From contig CAWHBU010000004.1 in assembly GCA_963827685.1 (NCBI GenBank), forward strand, positions 64,001 through 128,000: a DNA stretch of 64,000 bases, in the 5' to 3' direction. A program made the position numbers and the translations under genes. How positions within the stretch are numbered: the stretch's first letter is position 1; every line of letters begins with the position of its first letter. Source of the DNA: an uncultured delta proteobacterium (GTDB lineage Bacteria; Desulfobacterota; BSN033; UBA1163). The notes beneath the pieces are model-generated. The model ran no database searches and was not told the origin of the DNA. It saw nothing but the letters and a program-made list of their open reading frames with translations. Of the stretch, positions 19,354 through 28,587 are shown piece after piece.

Positions 19354-19448
19354 TTACCGAATTAAGGAATTGCGAATTAAGAAGTTAGAAATTCCTCAAT
19401 CCCTAAATTCCTTAATTCCCAAATTTGGGAGATAGAAAGGAGAATTCT

Positions 19449-20426
19449 ATGACAAACTTTTTTGCTGATAATTCCCTATCCATCGGCAATACACCGATGG
19501 TTCGAATCAATAGGATGGCTCAAGGACTCAAAGCCACAATTCTTGCCAAGATCGAAGGTCGAAATCCTGCCTATTCGGTCAAGTGCCGGATAGGAGCGAA
19601 TATGATCTGGACAGCAGAAAAGCAGGGACTGCTCAAACCCGGGATGGAGATCATTGAACCGACAAGCGGCAATACAGGCATCGCATTAGCGTATGTGGCA
19701 GCTGCAAGAGGGTACAAACTGAATGTCACCATGCCTGAGACCATGTCGATGGAAAGACGGAAGGTGCTTGCCATTCTCGGTGCAAACATCATCCTGACTC
19801 CAGGAACCAAAGGGATGAAAGGGGCAATCGAAGAGGCCGAGCGAATTTTGGCTTCGAGTCCCAATTACTATATGCCCCAGCAGTTTAAGAATCCTGCCAA
19901 TCCGGAAATTCACTTCAAGACCACGGGTCCGGAGATCTGGGAGCAGACGAATGGTGGGATAGATGTGCTTGTTTCGGGAGTGGGCACAGGGGGAACCATC
20001 ACAGGGGTGTCACGATACATTAAGAGAGAAAAGAAGAAGAAAATGATTAGCGTTGCGGTTGAACCGGTGGAGAGCCCTGTGATTACGCAACGCCTTGCCG
20101 GGGAAGAGCTCAAGCCTGGACCTCACAAGATTCAGGGAATTGGTGCCGGATTCATTCCAGACACTCTGGATTTGACTATGGTGGATCGCGTGGAGCAGGT
20201 TACAAGCGAAGAGGCGATCGAGTATGCAAGGCGGCTTTCCCGTGAGGAAGGCATCCTTTCGGGTGTCAGTTGTGGTGCAGCGATTGCCGTTGCTCTGAGG
20301 CTTGCCAGGATGGAGGAATTCAAAGGGAAAACTATCGTGACGATTCTTCCTGATTCGGGCGAACGTTATCTCAGCGGGCCGCTCTTCGAAGGAGTTTTCG
20401 ACGAGGCCGGTCTTCCAAGGATATAA
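19449..20426 (+). CDS. cysK: Cysteine synthase A
   Basis: SVKCRIG (PLP Lys), [27 protein letters not shown]. Confidence 0.95.
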
Positions 20427-20891: not shown

Positions 20892-20984
20892 AGATCGGTA
20901 GATGTAAGACCTCAAAAATATAATAGCGGGGCCTTCAGTTAAAAGTCTAATCATGCTGATCGCAATTTGTGTGGAGGGTCTACA

Positions 20985-21407
20985 ATGTTGAAAATGCTCA
21001 CAATCGCTCTGATGCTACTTTATTTCTCTTCAAATCTGGCAATGGCCAATGAAGGGCATCCAAAAACCTTGGCACAGGTGACGGATCCGAAAGCATTCAA
21101 ACTTCTAAAGGAAAAGTCCATTGACCCCAAAACGGGATTACCGAAGACCCTGGATCCAGATCTTTTTAAGGGAAAGGCTAAGAAGGCTTATCAAATTGCA
21201 AAAGAAATACCCGAGATTCTAGCCAAAATGCCATGTTTTTGCGAATGTGAAGTCTACGGTCACGAAAATCTCTTGGATTGTTTCATTGATAATCACGGCG
21301 CAGGATGAATGATCTGCCAGGAGGAGGTCCTCTTGACGAAAAGACTTTTTGATCAAAAGATGCCAATTGAGAAGATCAAGGAAGAAATTATAAAGAAGTT
21401 TAAATAA
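20985..21407 (+). CDS. PCYCGC-motif protein, predicted selenoprotein (UGA 21306-21308 = Sec, UxxC)
   Basis: MPCFCEC..GHENLLDCF..HGAG-UGA-MICQEEVLL...KKFK*; SECIS-like hairpin 21318-21335. Confidence 0.8.
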
Positions 21408-21454: not shown

Positions 21455-22552
21455 ATGATTTATAGGAAGAGGCTCATTTCAAAAAGATTGTCAATTTTAA
21501 TTCTTTTTTTCGTCGTCAGTATTTTCGGCGCAGAACAAGTTTTCTCTGCTGTATTGACCGAGGAGGAAAGAAATAATATCGCGGTTTATGAGAAGGTGGC
21601 AGACGGGGTCGTTAATGTCACCAGTACAGCCATCCAGATGGATTTTTTCTTCAACGCCTACCCAGCCCAGGGATCCGGGTCGGGCTCTATCATTAATACG
21701 AAAGGCTATATCTTGACCAACCATCACGTTGTGGCCGATGCGCAAAAATTAGAGGTGACGTTAGCGGATGGGTCGAAGTGGCCCGCCAAATTGGTAGGGT
21801 CAGATCCAGATAACGACCTCGCAGTGATTAAGATTGACGCCCCTAAGGAGAAGTTAAAGGTCATTTCCATGGGAGATTCAAAGAATTTAAGGATCGGCCA
21901 GAAAGTCCTGGCTATCGGGAATCCTTTTGGCCTGCAAAGGACGTTGACCACAGGAATTATCAGTTCCCTTGGCCGGACCATCCGGTCTGAAGTGGGCACG
22001 TTAATCGAAGACGTGATTCAGACCGATGCCGCCATTAACCCAGGAAACTCCGGAGGTCCCCTCCTCAACTCCGATGGAGAAATCATCGGAATCAATAGTG
22101 CCATTCTCAGCCCATCCGGCGGAAGCGTGGGGATTGGTTTTGCCATTCCCGTTAATACAGCAAAACGAGTGGTTCCAGACCTCCTTTCAAAAGGCTATGT
22201 AACCTATCCCTGGATCGGTGCGAACATTCAATCGCTCATCCCTGAGATGGCGAAATCTCTTAAACTTAGAATACAACGAGGAGCGATGATTACGGAAGTG
22301 GTAAAGGCTGGCCCTGCTGATAAGGCAGGTCTGAAAGGGGGCAATCAGAAGATTCAAGTTGGTAATATGATTGTGTTCGTGGGTGGAGATATCGTGGTGA
22401 AGGCGGACCAACATGATGTGAAAACAAATGATGAGTTGATCCATTATATTCGTGAGAAGAAACCGGGGGATACCATTCTCCTTAAAGTCTATCGAAAAGG
22501 AGATCTTATTGATGTGAGGGTGACTCTCGGCGAAAGACCGAGGAAGAGGTAA
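21455..22552 (+). CDS. HtrA/DegP-like trypsin protease with one PDZ domain
   Basis: TNHHV, DLAVIK, QTDAAINPGNSGGPL, PDZ. Confidence 0.93.
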   Translation: MIYRKRLISKRLSILILFFVVSIFGAEQVFSAVLTEEERNNIAVYEKVADGVVNVTSTAIQMDFFFNAYPAQGSGSGSIINTKGYILTNHHVVADAQKLEVTLADGSKWPAKLVGSDPDNDLAVIKIDAPKEKLKVISMGDSKNLRIGQKVLAIGNPFGLQRTLTTGIISSLGRTIRSEVGTLIEDVIQTDAAINPGNSGGPLLNSDGEIIGINSAILSPSGGSVGIGFAIPVNTAKRVVPDLLSKGYVTYPWIGANIQSLIPEMAKSLKLRIQRGAMITEVVKAGPADKAGLKGGNQKIQVGNMIVFVGGDIVVKADQHDVKTNDELIHYIREKKPGDTILLKVYRKGDLIDVRVTLGERPRKR

Positions 22553-22556
22553 TCAA

Positions 22557-22826
22557 ATGGGAATATTATGGGCTCAGTGGGGTTGGCGTGATTATGGCAT
22601 GGGGCCAGGCATGATGTGGGGATGGTGGGGAATGGGATGGATCTTTATGATCATTTTCTGGGGACTTATCGCCCTGGGTTTGGTCTTTCTCATTCGATGG
22701 CTCGTTGGGATGACGAAAGCCAACAAATCGGAGGAATCTGCTCTCGATATCCTGAAGAAACGCTACGCCCTTGGAGAGATCAATAAAGAAGAATTTGAAC
22801 AGAAGAAAAAAGATCTCCTGCAGTAA
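22557..22826 (+). CDS. SHOCT-domain membrane protein
   Basis: GMGPGMMWG, one TM, ALDILKKRYA.GEI.KEEFE. Confidence 0.88.
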   Translation: MGILWAQWGWRDYGMGPGMMWGWWGMGWIFMIIFWGLIALGLVFLIRWLVGMTKANKSEESALDILKKRYALGEINKEEFEQKKKDLLQ

Positions 22827-22842
22827 TCTTTATGAAGTGACT

Positions 22843-23396
22843 CATTGAATTTTATAAAAAATACCTGTTGAATACCGCCCAGCTCTGCTGGGCGGATGAA
22901 AACAGGTTCGCGAAGCGATAAGACATGGTATAAGTACTGCATGAGCTCGATAAAAAGAACAAGCCATGCGGTCTACGATTTGAAATATCATATGGTATGG
23001 GTTCCCAAATATCGGAAGATGATATTGGGAGGTGAGTTGGCAAAAAGGCTTAAGATGAGTTTTGAGCAAATATCGGAGAGGTACGAGTTTGAGATAGATA
23101 CGATGGAGGTAAAGGATGATCATGTTCATTTATTTTTGTCTGCCCCTCCTCGGTATTGTCCGGCAGAGATTGTGCAGATCATAAAGAGTATCTCGGCGAA
23201 AATGGTGTTCAAGCAGTTTCCAGAGGTGAAGAAAGAGCTTTGGGGTGGAGAGTTTTGGAGTGATGGGTATTTTGTTCGGTCTGTTGGAGACAAAGTTACC
23301 TCTGAAGTCATACGTCGCTATATAAAGTATCAGCAACAGGAGCAATTAAGTTTTGAATTTTAATGCCCCGCAGCTCTGCTGCGGGGTTCTTTACTG
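22843..23396 (+). mobile_element. IS200/IS605-family element (tnpA only); ends approximate
   Basis: Sub-terminal hairpins CCGCCCAGC-TCT-GCTGGGCGG (22875-22895) and CCCCGCAGC-TCT-GCTGCGGGG (23366-23386) flank tnpA. Confidence 0.88.
22941..23363 (+). CDS. tnpA: IS200 Y1 (HUH) transposase
   Basis: YHMVWVPKYR, DHVHL, LWGGEFWSDGY, YIKYQ. Confidence 0.93.
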   Translation: MSSIKRTSHAVYDLKYHMVWVPKYRKMILGGELAKRLKMSFEQISERYEFEIDTMEVKDDHVHLFLSAPPRYCPAEIVQIIKSISAKMVFKQFPEVKKELWGGEFWSDGYFVRSVGDKVTSEVIRRYIKYQQQEQLSFEF

Positions 23397-23419
23397 AATG
23401 GTGCTTGACTCTTTAATGA

Positions 23420-23560
23420 TCATTCAACAATTCTAACGCAGTTCTGGCTTCCAAATTCATTCGGGACACAGCCGGCGCAGGAAGGATCATTTTCCCAGTC
23501 GCCATCTTTGAGAAACCGATATTCATATCTTCCTGGCTTCAAAGGGAGAGTTGTTCTCCA
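23420..23560 (-). pseudogene. C-terminal remnant of a CBM48/isoamylase early-set (glycogen-binding) protein
   Basis: Manual translation WRTTLPLKPGRYEYRFLKDGDWENDPSCAGCVPNEFGSQNCVRIVE*; no start. Confidence 0.75.
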
Positions 23561-23561
23561 T

Positions 23562-23714
23562 CTACTTTCCCTTCACATGGCACTGGGTGCACATCGTCGG
23601 GCCGGCAGGTTTGTTGGCTTTCTTTAGCTCATCATGGCAACCCTTGCAGGTAATATGAAAAGCATCGTTGACTGAGGGCGTATTCCCCTCCGCACCGGCC
23701 TTGTGACACTGTGA
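23562..23714 (-). pseudogene. C-terminal remnant of a cytochrome c3-family multiheme protein
   Basis: [29 protein letters not shown]; in-frame stop upstream at 23724-23726. Confidence 0.78.
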
Positions 23715-23764
23715 ATTTTTGAATTAAGAGAAATAGTCTTCTTAAAAATATTTTGAAAAAACAC

Positions 23765-23793
23765 TTGATATTTTTTGAAGATTATATTAAATT
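23765..23793 (+). promoter_or_regulatory. Candidate sigma70 promoter for the leader-met operon
   Basis: TTGATA-N17-TAAATT in AT-rich DNA. Confidence 0.4.
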
Positions 23794-23841
23794 TGGTTTA
23801 AGTCAATTTTTGTAACAGTATGAGGAGCACTTTTGAGCCAT

Positions 23842-23943
23842 ATGGAAACGAGAGGGATTCCAGAAGTTTTTCCAAAAGAATCTATGATGATGTGCATGAT
23901 GGCCATGTGTTATCATAATGGTAGGGGAGGCCCGTCCATGTAA
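23842..23943 (+). CDS. Met/Cys-rich leader peptide 1 (33 aa)
   Basis: METRGIPEVFPKESMMMCMMAMCYHNGRGGPSM*; followed by an intrinsic terminator; upstream of metY. Confidence 0.8.
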   Translation: METRGIPEVFPKESMMMCMMAMCYHNGRGGPSM

Positions 23944-23973
23944 CGTCATCGGGATATTTTTCTAACGCCAGGC

Positions 23974-24015
23974 AACCCACTACCCAAAGAAATGGTCAGT
24001 GGGTTTTTTATTTTT
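23974..24015 (+). terminator. Attenuator terminator 1
   Basis: AACCCACT-ACC..GGT-C-AGTGGGTT hairpin + T-tract. Confidence 0.85.
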
Positions 24016-24064
24016 GTAATCATTTAACCAAGTAACTAAAAACTAAAGAGCGTAATTAAGCCAT

Positions 24065-24175
24065 ATGAAAACGATAATAACTCCAGGGAACTTTTTAAAA
24101 AAACTTAACCGATCTATGATAATGTGTTGCATGACCATGTGTTGTCTGCTTGGTATGGGAGGTCCGCCTATGTAA
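24065..24175 (+). CDS. Met/Cys-rich leader peptide 2 (36 aa)
   Basis: MKTIITPGNFLKKLNRSMIMCCMTMCCLLGMGGPPM*; paralogous to leader 1. Confidence 0.8.
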   Translation: MKTIITPGNFLKKLNRSMIMCCMTMCCLLGMGGPPM

Positions 24176-24207
24176 ACATCATTATAGTAGCGTTTGTATT
24201 GTCGGAT

Positions 24208-24249
24208 AACCCACTACCAAGAGAAATGGTTAGTGGGTTTTTTGTTTTT
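24208..24249 (+). terminator. Attenuator terminator 2
   Basis: AACCCACTA-CCA..TGG-T-TAGTGGGTT hairpin + T-tract, near-copy of terminator 1. Confidence 0.85.
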
Positions 24250-24251
24250 AA

Positions 24252-25652
<1,401 letters not shown>

Positions 25653-25658
25653 ACAGAG

Positions 25659-26918
25659 ATGTCAGTGTTAAGTTCATTGTCTAATAAAATGGATAGGGTT
25701 ACAGGGGCATCTAATGAGAATGCCGGTGTTCCGGGACAGGATTTGAAGACAAGGGCGAGTAATAGCGTGGGTCTTGTGCAAACAAAGTATTTTCATTTTG
25801 CACTTCCGCCCAATGAACTCATCCTGGAGGGTGGTGAAAAGCTCGGTCCAATTACGGTCGCTTATGAGACCTACGGCAAACTGAATGATCAGCGATCCAA
25901 CGGCGTTCTCATTCTTCATGCCCTCTCAGGCGATGCCCATGCTGCGGGTTTTCATAGAAGAGAAGAAAATCCAGGGTGGTGGGATAATATGATCGGGCCG
26001 GGCCGGGCCTTTGATACGAATAAATATTTCATTATTTGTTCAAACGTTCTCGGAGGTTGCAGGGGAACCACCGGTCCATCTTCCATCAACCCCAAGACAG
26101 GGAAAAAATATGGTCTCGATTTTCCAATCATTAGTATTTCAGACATGGTCAATGTGCAAAAGCACTTGATTGATCATTTGAAGATCGACCGGCTGCTTTC
26201 AGTGGCAGGCGGTTCAATGGGTGGCATGCAAGCCTTAGAGTGGCTGACTGCTCATCCAGAACGGCTGAAGAGTGCGATCGTTATTGCAACGGCGGCAAAG
26301 CATTCACCGCAGCAGATTGCATTTCACGAAGTCGGAAGGCAAGCGATTATGGCTGATCCTCACTGGAAGGAGGGTCATTATTACGGTGGGCTTCCTCCCG
26401 CAAAAGGGCTTTCCGTCGCCCGTATGATCGGTCATATCACCTATATGAGCGAAATCTCAATGGCGGAGAAATTCGGAAGGCGTTTGAGTCACAACGGGAA
26501 ACCCCATAAACTTAGCATCGGTTTTAAAGTAGAGGAATACCTGCACAACCGGGGGGATCATTTTGTGAAAAGGTTTGATGCCAATTCTTATCTCTATATC
26601 ACGAAGGCCATAGACTCTTTCGATGTTTCACGGGGCAAAGAACTCTATGAAGTATTCAAGGGGAATAAAGCTAAAGTCCTTGTTCTGGGATTTAAGTCGG
26701 ATTGGCTCTACCCGGCTTCTCAATCAAAGGAAATTGTAAAGGCTTGCAAGTTGACAGGGGTGGATACGACCTATTGTGAGATCGATTCAACTTATGGACA
26801 CGATGCCTTTCTCCTTGAGGTTGAGGAGGAGACACATCTCATTAAACATTTTCTACACAAGGTATCTTTTGAACAAGGGGTAATAGATGAATATGAGGTA
26901 AGGGAATATGCAATCTGA
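25659..26918 (+). CDS. metX: Homoserine O-acetyltransferase
   Basis: [28 protein letters not shown]. Confidence 0.95.
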
Positions 26919-27510
26919 ACCTCCTTCGTTAGAACACAGGGCCATCCTTAATTGGGTCAGGCGAGGCTCTTCCGTGCTCGATCTCGGTTGCGGCGACGGG
27001 GTATTATTGGATCTCCTTGTCCGAGAGAAGAGTGTCAGGGCCCAAGGCATTGAGATTGATGAACAGGCCATCTATCAATGTGTTGCCAAAGGACTAAGCG
27101 TATTCCATGAAGACATCGATCATGGCTTATCCGACTACTCAGATCAGTCTTTTGATTATGTGGTACTCAATCAGAGCTTCCAGCAGGTGAAAAATCCTGA
27201 CATTGTATTGAAGGAAGCCTTAAGAGTAGGCAGAGAAGTCATCGTCGGTTTCCCTAATTTTGCCCATTTCCTGGCTCGTTTGCAGATATTCTTTAAGGGC
27301 AAAACGCCAGTGACACCTTCCCTGCCATACGAATGGCATGATACCCCTAATCTCCATTTTTTAAGTATTTCAGACTTTACCGCGTATTGCCATCGGAGAA
27401 ACATTAAAATAGAGAAGGAGTCTTTTATTGGAAGAAATAGAAGAGTGAGGATATTCCCAAATCTTTTTGCGTTGGCAGGAATCTTTCTCATTTCAAATGG
27501 ATCCACCTAA
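26908..27510 (+). CDS. metW: Methionine biosynthesis protein MetW
   Basis: [27 protein letters not shown]; follows metX. Confidence 0.92.
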
Positions 27511-27570: not shown

Positions 27571-28587
27571 GTGCCGATGAAAGAACAGTTCTATATCCAA
27601 TGGCATATTACCAACCTTTGCAATCTTCGTTGCCAGCACTGCTATCAAGACGATTTCTCAAAGAGGAACGATCTGGATTGGGCAGGGCTTAAGAAGGTAT
27701 GTGATAACCTCCTCAACACAATGAGGGATTGGGATAAAACAGCCTGTATTCATCTCACGGGCGGCGAGCCTTTATTAAAACCCGAGCTATTTCCCCTCCT
27801 CAATCATTTAGACCAGCATTCAATGGTTGAAGAGTTGGGGATCATCACCAATGGTCTTCCCATTGATCGAGAGACGATGAAGAGGTTATCTGGGTTTTCA
27901 AAATTAAGGAAAATAAAGATTTCTCTGGATGGAGGGAATGCAGAGACGAATGATTCCATTCGTCAAAAGGGAACTTTCGATAAGGTAATGAAAAATATTC
28001 CCTTGATCAAAAGGGAAGAAAGATTTGAGATCATTTTAATGCTCACTGCTATGAAAAGAAATTTTAGGAGCCTTCTATCTCTCTTCAAGCTCTGTCAGGA
28101 TTTAGGCATTGATGGATTGATCATCGAACGGTTCATTCCTTTAAGCAGAGGAAGAGAAAGCTTGGATGAAGTGCTAAGTAAGGAAGAATGGAAAGAAATG
28201 ATAGGAATGCTTTCAGATTTTATCTCAACCCAAGAAGAGGATTCCTTTTTTCCTTACCAAGCCTTTCAGATCGGTTTCAGTGGAGAGGAGGCGGAACTAT
28301 TGGGTGCTCCTTGTGTCATTGGAGTGGATGGTCTTTGCATCATGCCTGAGGGAAGTGTTTTTCCCTGCCGAAGATTTCCCATTTCAATAGGAAACCTTTT
28401 GGAAACCCCCTTAAAACAGATATGGGAAGAATCAGAACTTTTAGAGAAATTGAGAAGGAAAGGGAACCTCAAAGGGAAATGCGGAAGCTGTGAGATAAGA
28501 GACTGCCGAGGTTGCCGAAGCCTGGCACTCGCTTTGACAGGTGACTTTCTGGAAGAAGACCCACACTGTTCGTATCAGGACGTTTAG
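27571..28587 (+). CDS. Radical SAM protein with SPASM domain
   Basis: CNLRCQHC, TGGEP, C-terminal C..PC...CGSC...CRGC...DPHC. Confidence 0.88.
   Translation: MPMKEQFYIQWHITNLCNLRCQHCYQDDFSKRNDLDWAGLKKVCDNLLNTMRDWDKTACIHLTGGEPLLKPELFPLLNHLDQHSMVEELGIITNGLPIDRETMKRLSGFSKLRKIKISLDGGNAETNDSIRQKGTFDKVMKNIPLIKREERFEIILMLTAMKRNFRSLLSLFKLCQDLGIDGLIIERFIPLSRGRESLDEVLSKEEWKEMIGMLSDFISTQEEDSFFPYQAFQIGFSGEEAELLGAPCVIGVDGLCIMPEGSVFPCRRFPISIGNLLETPLKQIWEESELLEKLRRKGNLKGKCGSCEIRDCRGCRSLALALTGDFLEEDPHCSYQDV

Follow-up and report, generated by a model that had tools for sequence, protein, structure and literature searches.

Leader-peptide attenuators are classically known in Proteobacteria from the trp, his, thr, leu, ilv and pheA genes, and Rfam holds the families Leu_leader and His_leader. 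Attenuation of this kind is established for Trp, His, Thr, Leu, Ile/Val and Phe, with a looser form for Cys, and methionine biosynthesis is, in the textbook account, controlled by S-adenosylmethionine (SAM) riboswitches, T-boxes or the regulators MetJ, MetR and SahR. Here we describe two consecutive leader units, each made of a short open reading frame (sORF) rich in Met and Cys codons and an intrinsic terminator, that precede the genes metY-metX-metW in a stretch of 64,000 nucleotides (nt) from an uncultured delta proteobacterium (assembly GCA_963827685.1, contig CAWHBU010000004.1, positions 64,001 to 128,000; this whole stretch is called the window, and coordinates are given in its numbering). 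We think it likely, with a probability of roughly 0.85, that both units are ribosome-mediated transcription attenuators that sense Met and, in some lineages including this one, Cys. They appear to belong to a widespread and previously undescribed family that controls sulfur-amino-acid genes.

Several described systems come close. For Actinobacteria, the accessible part of PMC1262725 describes leader ORFs with Cys codons that have no conserved terminator hairpins and for which Rho was suggested, and gives no RNA element for methionine genes. In beta-proteobacteria the metXZ RNA element consists of pseudoknotted conserved regions and has no ORF, and other met regulators are treated beside it (main text of PMC4239095). 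The available portion of a comparative study also reports other met regulators and, in Desulfovibrio, two THI-elements, each with a terminator, before thiSGHFE (PMC545781). The preliminary description of the present locus knew of no tandem Met/Cys attenuator, and our full-text literature search agrees with it, having returned no description of a Met-codon leader. Nor is a Met-specific leader found in Rfam, Pfam, NCBIfam or the full-text literature searched, the coverage of which leaves out most subscription journals and supplements.

Two leader-peptide units upstream of metY

Within positions 23760-24360 a promoter-like site, unit 1, unit 2 and the metY ribosome-binding site follow one another 5' to 3', and metY-metX-metW come next; all are on the plus strand. 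The two paralogous units of sORF and terminator that the preliminary description had placed here are present with all the features ascribed to them. They share 81% mean column identity when aligned and match each other at E = 3.2e-15 in a DNA search of their own 5.2-Mb genome, and that search found no third copy in the genome.

Leader ORF 1 (23833..23943, ORF finder) has 36 codons from a TTG at 23833, or 33 from the ATG at 23842, and encodes MSHMETRGIPEVFPKESMMMCMMAMCYHNGRGGPSM, a peptide of the form ..SMMMCMMAMC..GRGGPSM-stop. Its ortholog in the related genome G010 is 95% identical at the DNA level and has the same TTG start. Leader ORF 2 (24065..24175, ORF finder), also of 36 codons, encodes MKTIITPGNFLKKLNRSMIMCCMTMCCLLGMGGPPM (..SMIMCCMTMCC..GMGGPPM-stop). 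The clusters of Met and Cys codons were counted correctly in the preliminary description: unit 1 has AUG AUG AUG UGC AUG AUG GCC AUG UGU at 23884..23910 (6 Met, 2 Cys) and unit 2 has AUG AUA AUG UGU UGC AUG ACC AUG UGU UGU at 24116..24145 (4 Met, 4 Cys), i.e. all within nine to ten codons. Two AUGs of each cluster are invariant throughout the family (23899-23901 and 23905-23907 in unit 1, 24131-24133 and 24137-24139 in unit 2).

Downstream of the control codons each ORF closes with the same arrangement of GGGAGG, 7 nt, AUG and UAA. In unit 1 (23925..23943) these lie at 23925-23930, 23938-23940 and 23941-23943, and in unit 2 (24157..24175) at 24157-24162, 24170-24172 and 24173-24175. The putative antiterminator strands overlap this arrangement: UGGUAGGGG at 23919..23927 in unit 1, with the core GGTAGGGG at 23920-23927, and CUUGGUAUGGG at 24149..24159 in unit 2, with the core TGGTATGGG at 24151-24159. 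Both are complementary, as had been proposed, to the terminator 5' arms AACCCACTACC at 23974-23984 and 24208-24218, with duplex energies of -12.2 (unit 1) and -15.6 kcal/mol (unit 2). Terminator 1 (23974..24015) consists of AACCCACUACC, a 9-nt loop, GGUCAGUGGGUU and the run T6-A-T5, and its hairpin has an energy of -13.2 kcal/mol; terminator 2 (24208..24249) consists of AACCCACUACC(A), a loop, GGUUAGUGGGUU and T6-G-T5, with -15.0 kcal/mol. Both were missed by a simple terminator scan because of the 9-nt loop and the bulged stem.

The Shine-Dalgarno sequences of the leaders had been called weak or distant. This holds for leader 2, which has none that is recognisable, and not for leader 1, where GAGGAG (23822..23827) lies 5 nt 5' of the TTG at 23833 and is therefore not weak. 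The promoter-like site TTGATA-17 nt-TAAATT (23765..23793), a consensus match only (9 of 12 positions), is the sole such plus-strand site 5' of both units in a consensus scan, and TTGACA is present at the corresponding place in single-unit relatives. The same scan found no plus-strand promoter-like site between unit 1 and unit 2, and the units therefore act in series.

Nothing else in the genome looks like these units. A genome-wide scan for Met-dense sORFs (8-70 codons, 4 or more Met within 8 residues) recovered 48, none of which outside the locus resembles a Met leader with this terminator; a simple terminator test on the 48 flagged leader 2 and one unrelated sORF on C10, and missed leader 1 because its terminator stem is bulged. 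The absence of a known riboswitch or T-box, claimed earlier from inspection, is borne out by an Rfam scan of 22500-25500 at E <= 10, which gave no riboswitch, T-box or leader family; the best match was RsaJ, at 29 bits against a gathering score of 100 and confined to the terminator. The SAM-I riboswitch RF00162 was not found in the whole genome, and control genomes do match it. Three leader peptides had no match in Pfam or NCBIfam.

We propose that transcription would start near 23800 and meet two intrinsic terminators in series before metY-metX-metW. In each unit the ribosome translating the leader would select which of two structures forms, the pairing elements of the switch being GGUAGGGG with CCCACUACC, and the latter also with its terminator 3' partner. 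When charged Met-tRNA and Cys-tRNA (transfer RNA) are ample, the ribosome would reach the stop codon and cover GGGAGG-N7-AUG-stop, including the GGG that closes the antiterminator; the terminator hairpin would then form and transcription would end. When the supply is poor, the ribosome would be held on the AUG/UGY codons at least 13 nt upstream, so that (U)UGGUA(G/U)GGG would stay free, pair with the terminator 5' arm CCCACUACC(A) as it emerges, and let RNA polymerase read through. That starvation stalls the ribosome at AUG/UGY, and that this alters read-through, is what we infer from the arrangement.

The element is conserved, and it is linked to metY. A DNA search of 60 relatives found it in 12 at E < 1e-8, each time directly 5' of metY and with the leader-peptide consensus ..SMMMCCMxMC(C)xxGxGGPPM-stop. 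A covariance model (R1), built from an alignment of 19 sequences (A2), matches 15 of the 68 genomes of the window's class, and MetY is encoded at E <= 1e-100 in 15 of the same 68. Element and metY occur together in 14 genomes, which are all of those where both ends are readable; the two mismatches are contig-edge cases (the metY start in G005 is 30 nt from the end of a contig, and the leader of G009 is itself at a contig end). Five genomes of the same genus that have no leader have no metY either. Conservation upstream of metY in relatives, which the preliminary description had named as a check on its reading, is thus found in 14 of 14 assessable class genomes. The other homocysteine route, HcyBio, is present in 61 of the 68 class genomes, the window's own included, which makes the cassette of leader and metY-metX-metW an accessory module. 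Among public MetY loci, the closest are in metagenome-assembled genomes (MAGs) labelled Syntrophorhabdus, Syntrophorhabdaceae and Thermodesulfobacteriota. In a phylum-wide sample of 151 genomes only G201 matched besides the own genome (E = 1.9e-8), weaker matches aside; weak matches comparable to those proved to be bare terminators in a covariance-model search.

Reading frame, alternative structures and the ribosome

Pattern and covariance-model scans yielded about 70 further copies. The first pattern, ATG-N3-ATG-N12-G-N4-GGGAGG-N7-DTG-TRR, was taken from invariant columns and run on one genome per species; it gave at least 43 family members among the 80 listed of 92 matches, after two of 45 candidates had been dropped that had a downstream T-run without matching context. 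In the second pattern any last sense codon was allowed and a T6 run was demanded; its 64 stretches comprised 49 family members and 15 chance hits. The third search was free of patterns: in the order around one Syntrophobacterales MAG, the covariance model matched 22 of 151 genomes at 23 places, i.e. 19 family members and 4 bare terminators. The counts below are to be read in the knowledge that two of these three large samples were drawn with patterns fixing part of the motif, and that related sequences are not independent.

The sORF is under coding-type constraint. Of the distinct sequences, 48 of 48 keep the leader frame free of stops over 8 codons or more on the 5' side of the conserved core, as against 27 and 9 of 48 for the remaining frames; the open stretch has a median of 29 codons in the leader frame and of 9 and 2 in those. 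With T-R-R allowed after the ORF, a true stop follows in all 49 family members and TGG in none, while TGG follows in 7 of the 15 chance hits. With the window's units added, TAA, TAG and TGA are used 17 times each, so the stop is kept by function and not by sequence. The motif ATG-NNN-ATG is invariant in alignments A2 and A3, where the codons are never even GUG, and it is also kept in L244, L111, L088 and L167, which were found without that pattern; two invariant AUGs are predicted by codon identity and not by base pairing. Cys codons alternate between UGU and UGC. In G030 both have become Arg codons with the Met codons kept, and Acidobacteriota members mostly have Met codons only. Taken as sequence evidence, this indicates that the sORFs are not chance ORFs and that ORF, stop and Met codons behave as a translated frame, with Met apparently the universal signal and Cys a lineage-specific addition.

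These observations bear on two readings in which the leader is not a sensor of its own translation. A metabolite-binding riboswitch, for SAM or Met for example, with the ORF incidental, would suit the strong cross-phylum sequence conservation and the position in a met 5' leader with a terminator-antiterminator expression platform. However, only the leader frame is kept open, the stop alternates, the control region consists of AUG and UGY codons, no Rfam family matches and the consensus fold is without a conserved multi-helix aptamer; we regard this reading as highly improbable. It is scarcely credible that the sORFs encode functional Met/Cys-rich peptides, such as metal-binding peptides or precursors for the radical SAM/SPASM enzyme encoded at 27571-28587. 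The latter gene does stand after metW and the composition is rich in Cys and Met, but each sORF has a terminator of its own, family members lie beside quite different neighbours, the N-terminal regions are not conserved, and the three leader peptides compared with Pfam and NCBIfam match nothing there.

The RNA structures give further support to attenuation. The terminator helix of the family is 94.7% paired, and 8 of its 10 pairs have changed on both sides. The antiterminator strand ends in the GGG of GGGAGG, and its partner in the terminator 5' arm starts with CCC. These two strands have co-evolved: among 35 representatives, cognate antiterminator-terminator duplexes have a mean of -17.5 kcal/mol as against -12.9 kcal/mol for non-cognate ones. 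None of 20,000 permutations reached the cognate mean, and shuffling the strand gave a mean of -11.35 kcal/mol. Across lineages the upstream strand tracks terminators of differing sequence, as in UUGGCAGGGG with CCCACUGCCAA, CCCACCUGGGUGUGGG with CCCGCAACCAGGUGG and GGCCCCUCUGGUUUGGG with CCCACUACCAGAGAGGGC. A further helix, between the variable codon of ATG-NNN-ATG and bases 3' of GGGAGG, was considered and dropped, since no covariation was visible by eye in A2.

The position of the ribosome was modelled by masking the bases it covers, with an assumed footprint of A site -15 to +11. When transcripts are cut short of the terminator 3' arm, a ribosome on the one or the other invariant AUG leaves an antiterminator of at least 5 pairs in 47 and 45 of 54 members, and a ribosome at the stop does so in 10 of 54. 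The cut transcript of unit 1 has 7 antiterminator pairs with the ribosome on the Met codons, 0 without a ribosome and 4 with the ribosome at the stop. For unit 2, full-length minimum-energy folding gives the antiterminator in place of the terminator when the ribosome stands on codons 24116-24128, the first five control codons. Cut transcripts folded with no ribosome at all form the antiterminator in 37 of 54 members, unit 2 included, and most members should therefore have ON as their default state, OFF requiring a ribosome at the 3' end of the ORF. Unit 1 and its ortholog in G010 belong to the minority in which a hairpin would sequester the antiterminator strand without translation; in unit 1 this hairpin pairs the Met codons GAUGAUGU (23886-23893) with the post-stop strand ACGUCAUC (23943-23950).

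The end of the ORF is conserved in a way that needs separate comment. It had been described as a peptide ending, G-x-G-G-P-x-M-stop. The conservation stands as one of nucleotides (G, GGGAGG, YYY, AUG, stop) and does not stand as one of residues. GGGAGG is the same in 19 of the 19 rows of A2. The codon called 'G50' always begins with G and may specify Gly, Glu or Asp; the first Gly codon over the GGGAGG is always GGA, its third base fixed, with GGN following; and the final AUG is always preceded by a YYY codon, which is able to pair with GGG (98.9% of cells). A ligand-sensing arrest peptide of the TnaC/SpeFL type, in which the nascent leader together with free Met or SAM would stall the ribosome at the stop and so set termination, would make sense of an ORF that always ends in ..G-x-G-G-x-x-M-stop and of an end conserved across phyla, which is unusual for leader peptides. 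We consider it very unlikely, given that the fixed positions are nucleotides and not residues. Residues vary at other places besides 'G50': R, M, T, L, V or W stands ahead of GG, and the last M is preceded by two residues drawn from P, S, L, F, T, A, V, M and R, the second of which always has a YYY codon. In L088 and L287 the ending stands in a different frame, and the N-terminal parts are unrelated and of variable length.

The spacing of GGGAGG, 7 nt and AUG matches that of the metY gene's own AGGAGG, 8 nt and ATG, and the leader closes on a Shine-Dalgarno-like sequence and a start codon followed immediately by a stop. Where the last sense codon was left unconstrained, it is ATG in 44 of 49 members, GTG in 3, TTG in 1 and AGG in 1 (L258). 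This start-stop geometry is present in 48 of 49 members from the pattern scan and at 17 of 19 places from the model search. The 19 places comprise 16 with an in-frame AUG-stop, L287 with one out of frame, L297 with CUG-UGA and L295 with none. Like L287, L088 keeps AUG-UGA out of frame with the leader ORF. The stop of L244 comes two codons further on, and that of unit 2 in G010 is gone. On our reading, a ribosome on this pad, its anti-Shine-Dalgarno sequence on GGAGG, would remove the closing GGG of the antiterminator.

This could be carried further, to an attenuator in which OFF is a ribosome parked on GGGAGG-N7-AUG-stop, where it removes the 3' end of the antiterminator. The parked ribosome would be the terminating one or a fresh initiation with formylmethionyl-tRNA, read-through would be the default without a ribosome, and the supply of initiator Met-tRNA would be read as well. 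Such parking is a variant of the best explanation and not an alternative to attenuation. The nucleotide-level invariance of GGGAGG, the spacing shared with the metY ribosome-binding site, the strong preference for AUG as last sense codon, its retention out of frame in L088 and L287, and the loss of most antiterminators when a ribosome is placed at the stop all favour it, as do the functional start-stops with Shine-Dalgarno-like sequences in Escherichia coli genes, so far as the accessible text of 10.1101/520783 describes them. The exceptions are AGG in L258, CUG-UGA in L297, no AUG-stop in L295, the displaced stop of L244 and the lost stop of unit 2 in G010. Moreover, GUG is also allowed by G-U wobble of the AUG with an upstream CAUG, GGG is needed anyway because it pairs with the terminator CCC, and by our estimate a 5-Mb genome would contain about 20 chance occurrences of GGAGG-N6-8-ATG-stop. 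On balance we hold parking to be unlikely. We are equally doubtful of a fuller scheme in which the antiterminator is ON by default, the pad-parked ribosome is the sole OFF signal, the charging of elongator and initiator Met-tRNA is integrated (and with it Met and one-carbon status), and the cassette spread between phyla with metY.

Attenuation by a leader-translating ribosome, which we prefer, has several points to set against it. Leader 2 is without a good Shine-Dalgarno site, its AAAGAG lying 14 nt 5' of the ATG. Full-length equilibrium folds switch to the antiterminator in only 22 of 54 members and never in unit 1; the folding of alternative structures, proposed as a test in the preliminary description, thus pointed to a switch in transcripts folded to the decision point (stall against stop) and gave a mixed picture at equilibrium. 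The helix P1, between the Met codons and the post-stop strand, is only 75.9% paired, which makes the anti-antiterminator uncertain, and with so many members forming the antiterminator without a ribosome the classical four-region logic fails for most of them. The classical model also does not account for an invariant GGGAGG-N7-AUG-stop inside the antiterminator. The covariation test proposed at the same time was likewise divided, being positive across lineages and for the terminator helix, and not separable from column shuffles for fixed columns in the close family. There the antiterminator is 81.9% paired, and pairing falls to 36-54% when the partner is slid, yet 56 of 500 column shuffles equal it and 2 of 9 pairs change on both sides; this test is weak because the close family has too little variation. 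Met starvation also limits initiation, which could blunt any translation-dependent attenuator. Finally, a search for RNA runs of this organism yielded none, and the one metatranscriptome (X1, 5% of sampled words) contains only relatives' contigs that are 85-95% alike (about 86% overall) and says nothing on transcript starts, ends or regulation; one of these contigs extends from the second terminator into metY, and 24022-24339 is missing from another, which fits a single-unit relative.

Tandem layout, carriers and genes nearby

Tandem units occur only in the window's genome and in G010 (95% identical); all 13 of 13 other class carriers have one unit with both Met and Cys codons. Leader ORF 2 is the ortholog of that single unit. 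It is 88% identical to the unit of G028. In a tree of about 150 columns, with low support on 8 of 16 inner branches, unit 2 groups with the relatives' single units (with G028, support 86/81), and unit 1 and its ortholog in G010 are placed outside every other unit of Syntrophorhabdaceae. Unit 1 would be an extra divergent copy, the Met-richer of the two (6 Met and 2 Cys as against 4 and 4). Two serial terminators should multiply the response. Since the two-unit layout is limited to these two genomes, a Met gate and a Cys gate working together as an AND device, as suggested in the preliminary description, can only be proposed, and we put forward separate Met and Cys gates as a hypothesis.

The wider family is spread over several phylum-level labels. 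Carriers are labelled Syntrophaceae, Syntrophus, Smithella, Syntrophobacterales and Desulfobaccales (Syntrophales too), and further Acidobacteriota or Terriglobia (7 loci), Actinomycetota (7 loci), Omnitrophota and Planctomycetia; such labels may be mistaken, yet each phylum-level group is represented in several MAGs by a sequence subtype of its own. Upstream of metY, Met/Cys sORFs are present in 13 of 80 public loci, and one more (L058) is gained with a laxer filter; these include MAGs labelled Syntrophobacterales, Syntrophaceae, Desulfomonilia and Actinomycetota. No archaeal metY locus among the 80 has a Met/Cys leader. In 20 bacterial metY loci without leader (L046, L049, L051, L056, L059, L069, L076 and 13 more), no Rfam family reaches its gathering score within about 1.2 kb.

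The gene downstream of most copies is metY, and the targets overall are metY, metX, HcyBio, cysK-like, cysE-like and sulfate-type transporter genes. A metX gene follows in L178, L195, L222, L280, L281, L288 and L295, HcyBio (PF01837) with NIL-ferredoxin in L182, and DUF3034 followed by metY-metX in L197, L212 and L225. Elsewhere we found Porin_O_P, PBP_like_2 and an ABC permease (L237), an SBP_bac_11 binding protein (L285), a cysK-like PALP gene (L297), a Hexapep gene (L284) and a second Cys_Met_Meta_PP gene (L278). The common theme is the supply of homocysteine, methionine, cysteine and, probably, sulfate. Targets so varied argue for a sulfur-amino-acid signal that is independent of any one gene family.

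Three further observations concern these loci. The DUF3034 genes (L197 5806-6669, L212 2584-3432, L225 1033-1872), from two MAGs labelled Omnitrophota and one labelled “bacterium”, encode a signal-peptide-like N-terminus and are placed between a Met/Cys leader and metY (metY being seen in L212), a placement that predicts a role for DUF3034 in sulfur or methionine supply. The window's MetY is 77-84% identical to MetY of archaeal MAGs (labelled Bathyarchaeia, Methanoperedens, Freyarchaeota and Nitrososphaerota; loci L047-L118), which are as close to it as many bacterial ones; this points to frequent transfer of metY among anoxic-sediment organisms. G006 carries a second complete leader-terminator unit on another contig (L136 1454-1573; G006:C89 = L231), about 400 nt upstream of an XdhC-family gene and not of a met gene, with no clear sulfur link. 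It may be an orphaned copy, come from another strain in the bin, or mark an unrecognised target.

In the window itself, the metY Shine-Dalgarno site AGGAGG (24340..24345) lies 8 nt 5' of the ATG at 24354. The three genes each exceed the cut-off of a subfamily or equivalog NCBIfam model: metY (24354..25652), for O-acetylhomoserine sulfhydrylase (homocysteine synthase), with 665 bits against 495 (TIGR01326); metX (25659..26918), for homoserine O-acetyltransferase, with 505 bits against 331 (NF001209); and metW (26908..27510) with 242 bits against 189.5 (TIGR02081). Directly 3' of metW is the radical SAM/SPASM gene (27571-28587, plus strand), which is below every NCBIfam cut-off (best AhbD-like, 169 against 500 bits). 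At 3-4 kb upstream of the locus lie cysK (19425-20426, plus strand; TIGR01139, 450 bits) and a homolog of the CYCXC-family (seleno)proteins (20967-21308, plus strand; 79 bits, just below the cut-off of 90), so that sulfur-metabolism genes are clustered in the region. An IS200/IS605-family transposase gene (22896-23363, plus strand; NF033573, 158 bits, cut-off 55) is followed directly by a 10-bp GC-rich hairpin (23365-23387), about 400 nt upstream of the metY promoter-like site. Between this IS200 element and the leader are two apparent gene remnants on the minus strand, at about 23420-23542 and 23562-23723; one is a short ORF that by eye resembles a carbohydrate-binding-module fragment, and the other, which has stops upstream and no start codon, corresponds to the C-terminus of a multihaem cytochrome c and contains three CXXCH motifs.

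Comparison with described systems

If the proposed reading is true, the Met gap in leader-peptide attenuation would be filled by some 70 or more copies in uncultured anaerobes carrying the labels of five or so phyla. It would account for the control of the accessory metY-metX-metW cassette in genomes in which no SAM-I riboswitch was found, and would make the element a regulon marker for sulfur-amino-acid supply genes, including uncharacterised ones such as those of DUF3034 and of porin or binding-protein transporters. It would also provide a natural test case of an attenuator facing an amino acid that is required for the start of translation as well, and raise the question of whether an in-frame Shine-Dalgarno-AUG-stop can hold a ribosome on an RNA switch.

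SAM and S-adenosylhomocysteine (SAH) riboswitches, Met T-boxes, the regulators MetJ, MetR and SahR, and the metXZ element resemble the units in controlling metY, metX and metW, several of them through a terminator-antiterminator platform. The riboswitches, T-boxes and protein regulators sense SAM, SAH, uncharged tRNA or protein, not the translation of Met codons, and none of them matches here. The metXZ element is set apart from the units by its main-text description only (PMC4239095).

The Cys leaders of Actinobacteria share with the units short upstream ORFs, runs of sulfur-amino-acid codons and linkage to sulfur-assimilation or cysteine genes, so far as the accessible parts of PMC1262725 and 10.1101/834739 go. 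According to the same parts they have Cys runs only, and the mycobacterial ones are leaderless, whereas the units here have invariant Met codons, intrinsic terminators and 5' leaders; as far as compared, there is no sequence similarity between them. The tandem THI-elements, in the available portion of PMC545781, are likewise two sensor and terminator units in series, but they are riboswitches and not leader-peptide attenuators that differ in their Met:Cys codons. The start-stop mini-ORFs of E. coli, as presented in the accessible text of 10.1101/520783, have the same Shine-Dalgarno-like sequence with a start and immediate stop. They are found inside protein genes in another frame, and experiments have shown that ribosomes bind them, whereas the start-stop here, a putative one, as a rule closes a leader ORF in frame and falls within an antiterminator.

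The units also resemble the classical attenuators. In both there is a short ORF with codons for the regulated amino acid and an intrinsic terminator before the first structural gene, the antiterminator shares the terminator 5' arm, and the position of the ribosome would decide between the two. The units differ from the classical attenuators in having AUG (and UGY) as control codons and an ORF whose 3' part is conserved in sequence across several phyla. Most family members are without a convincing 1:2 anti-antiterminator and have a fold that is ON by default without a ribosome. Also unlike the classical attenuators, they carry an invariant Shine-Dalgarno-like GGGAGG-N7-AUG-stop, and at this locus two such units stand in series.

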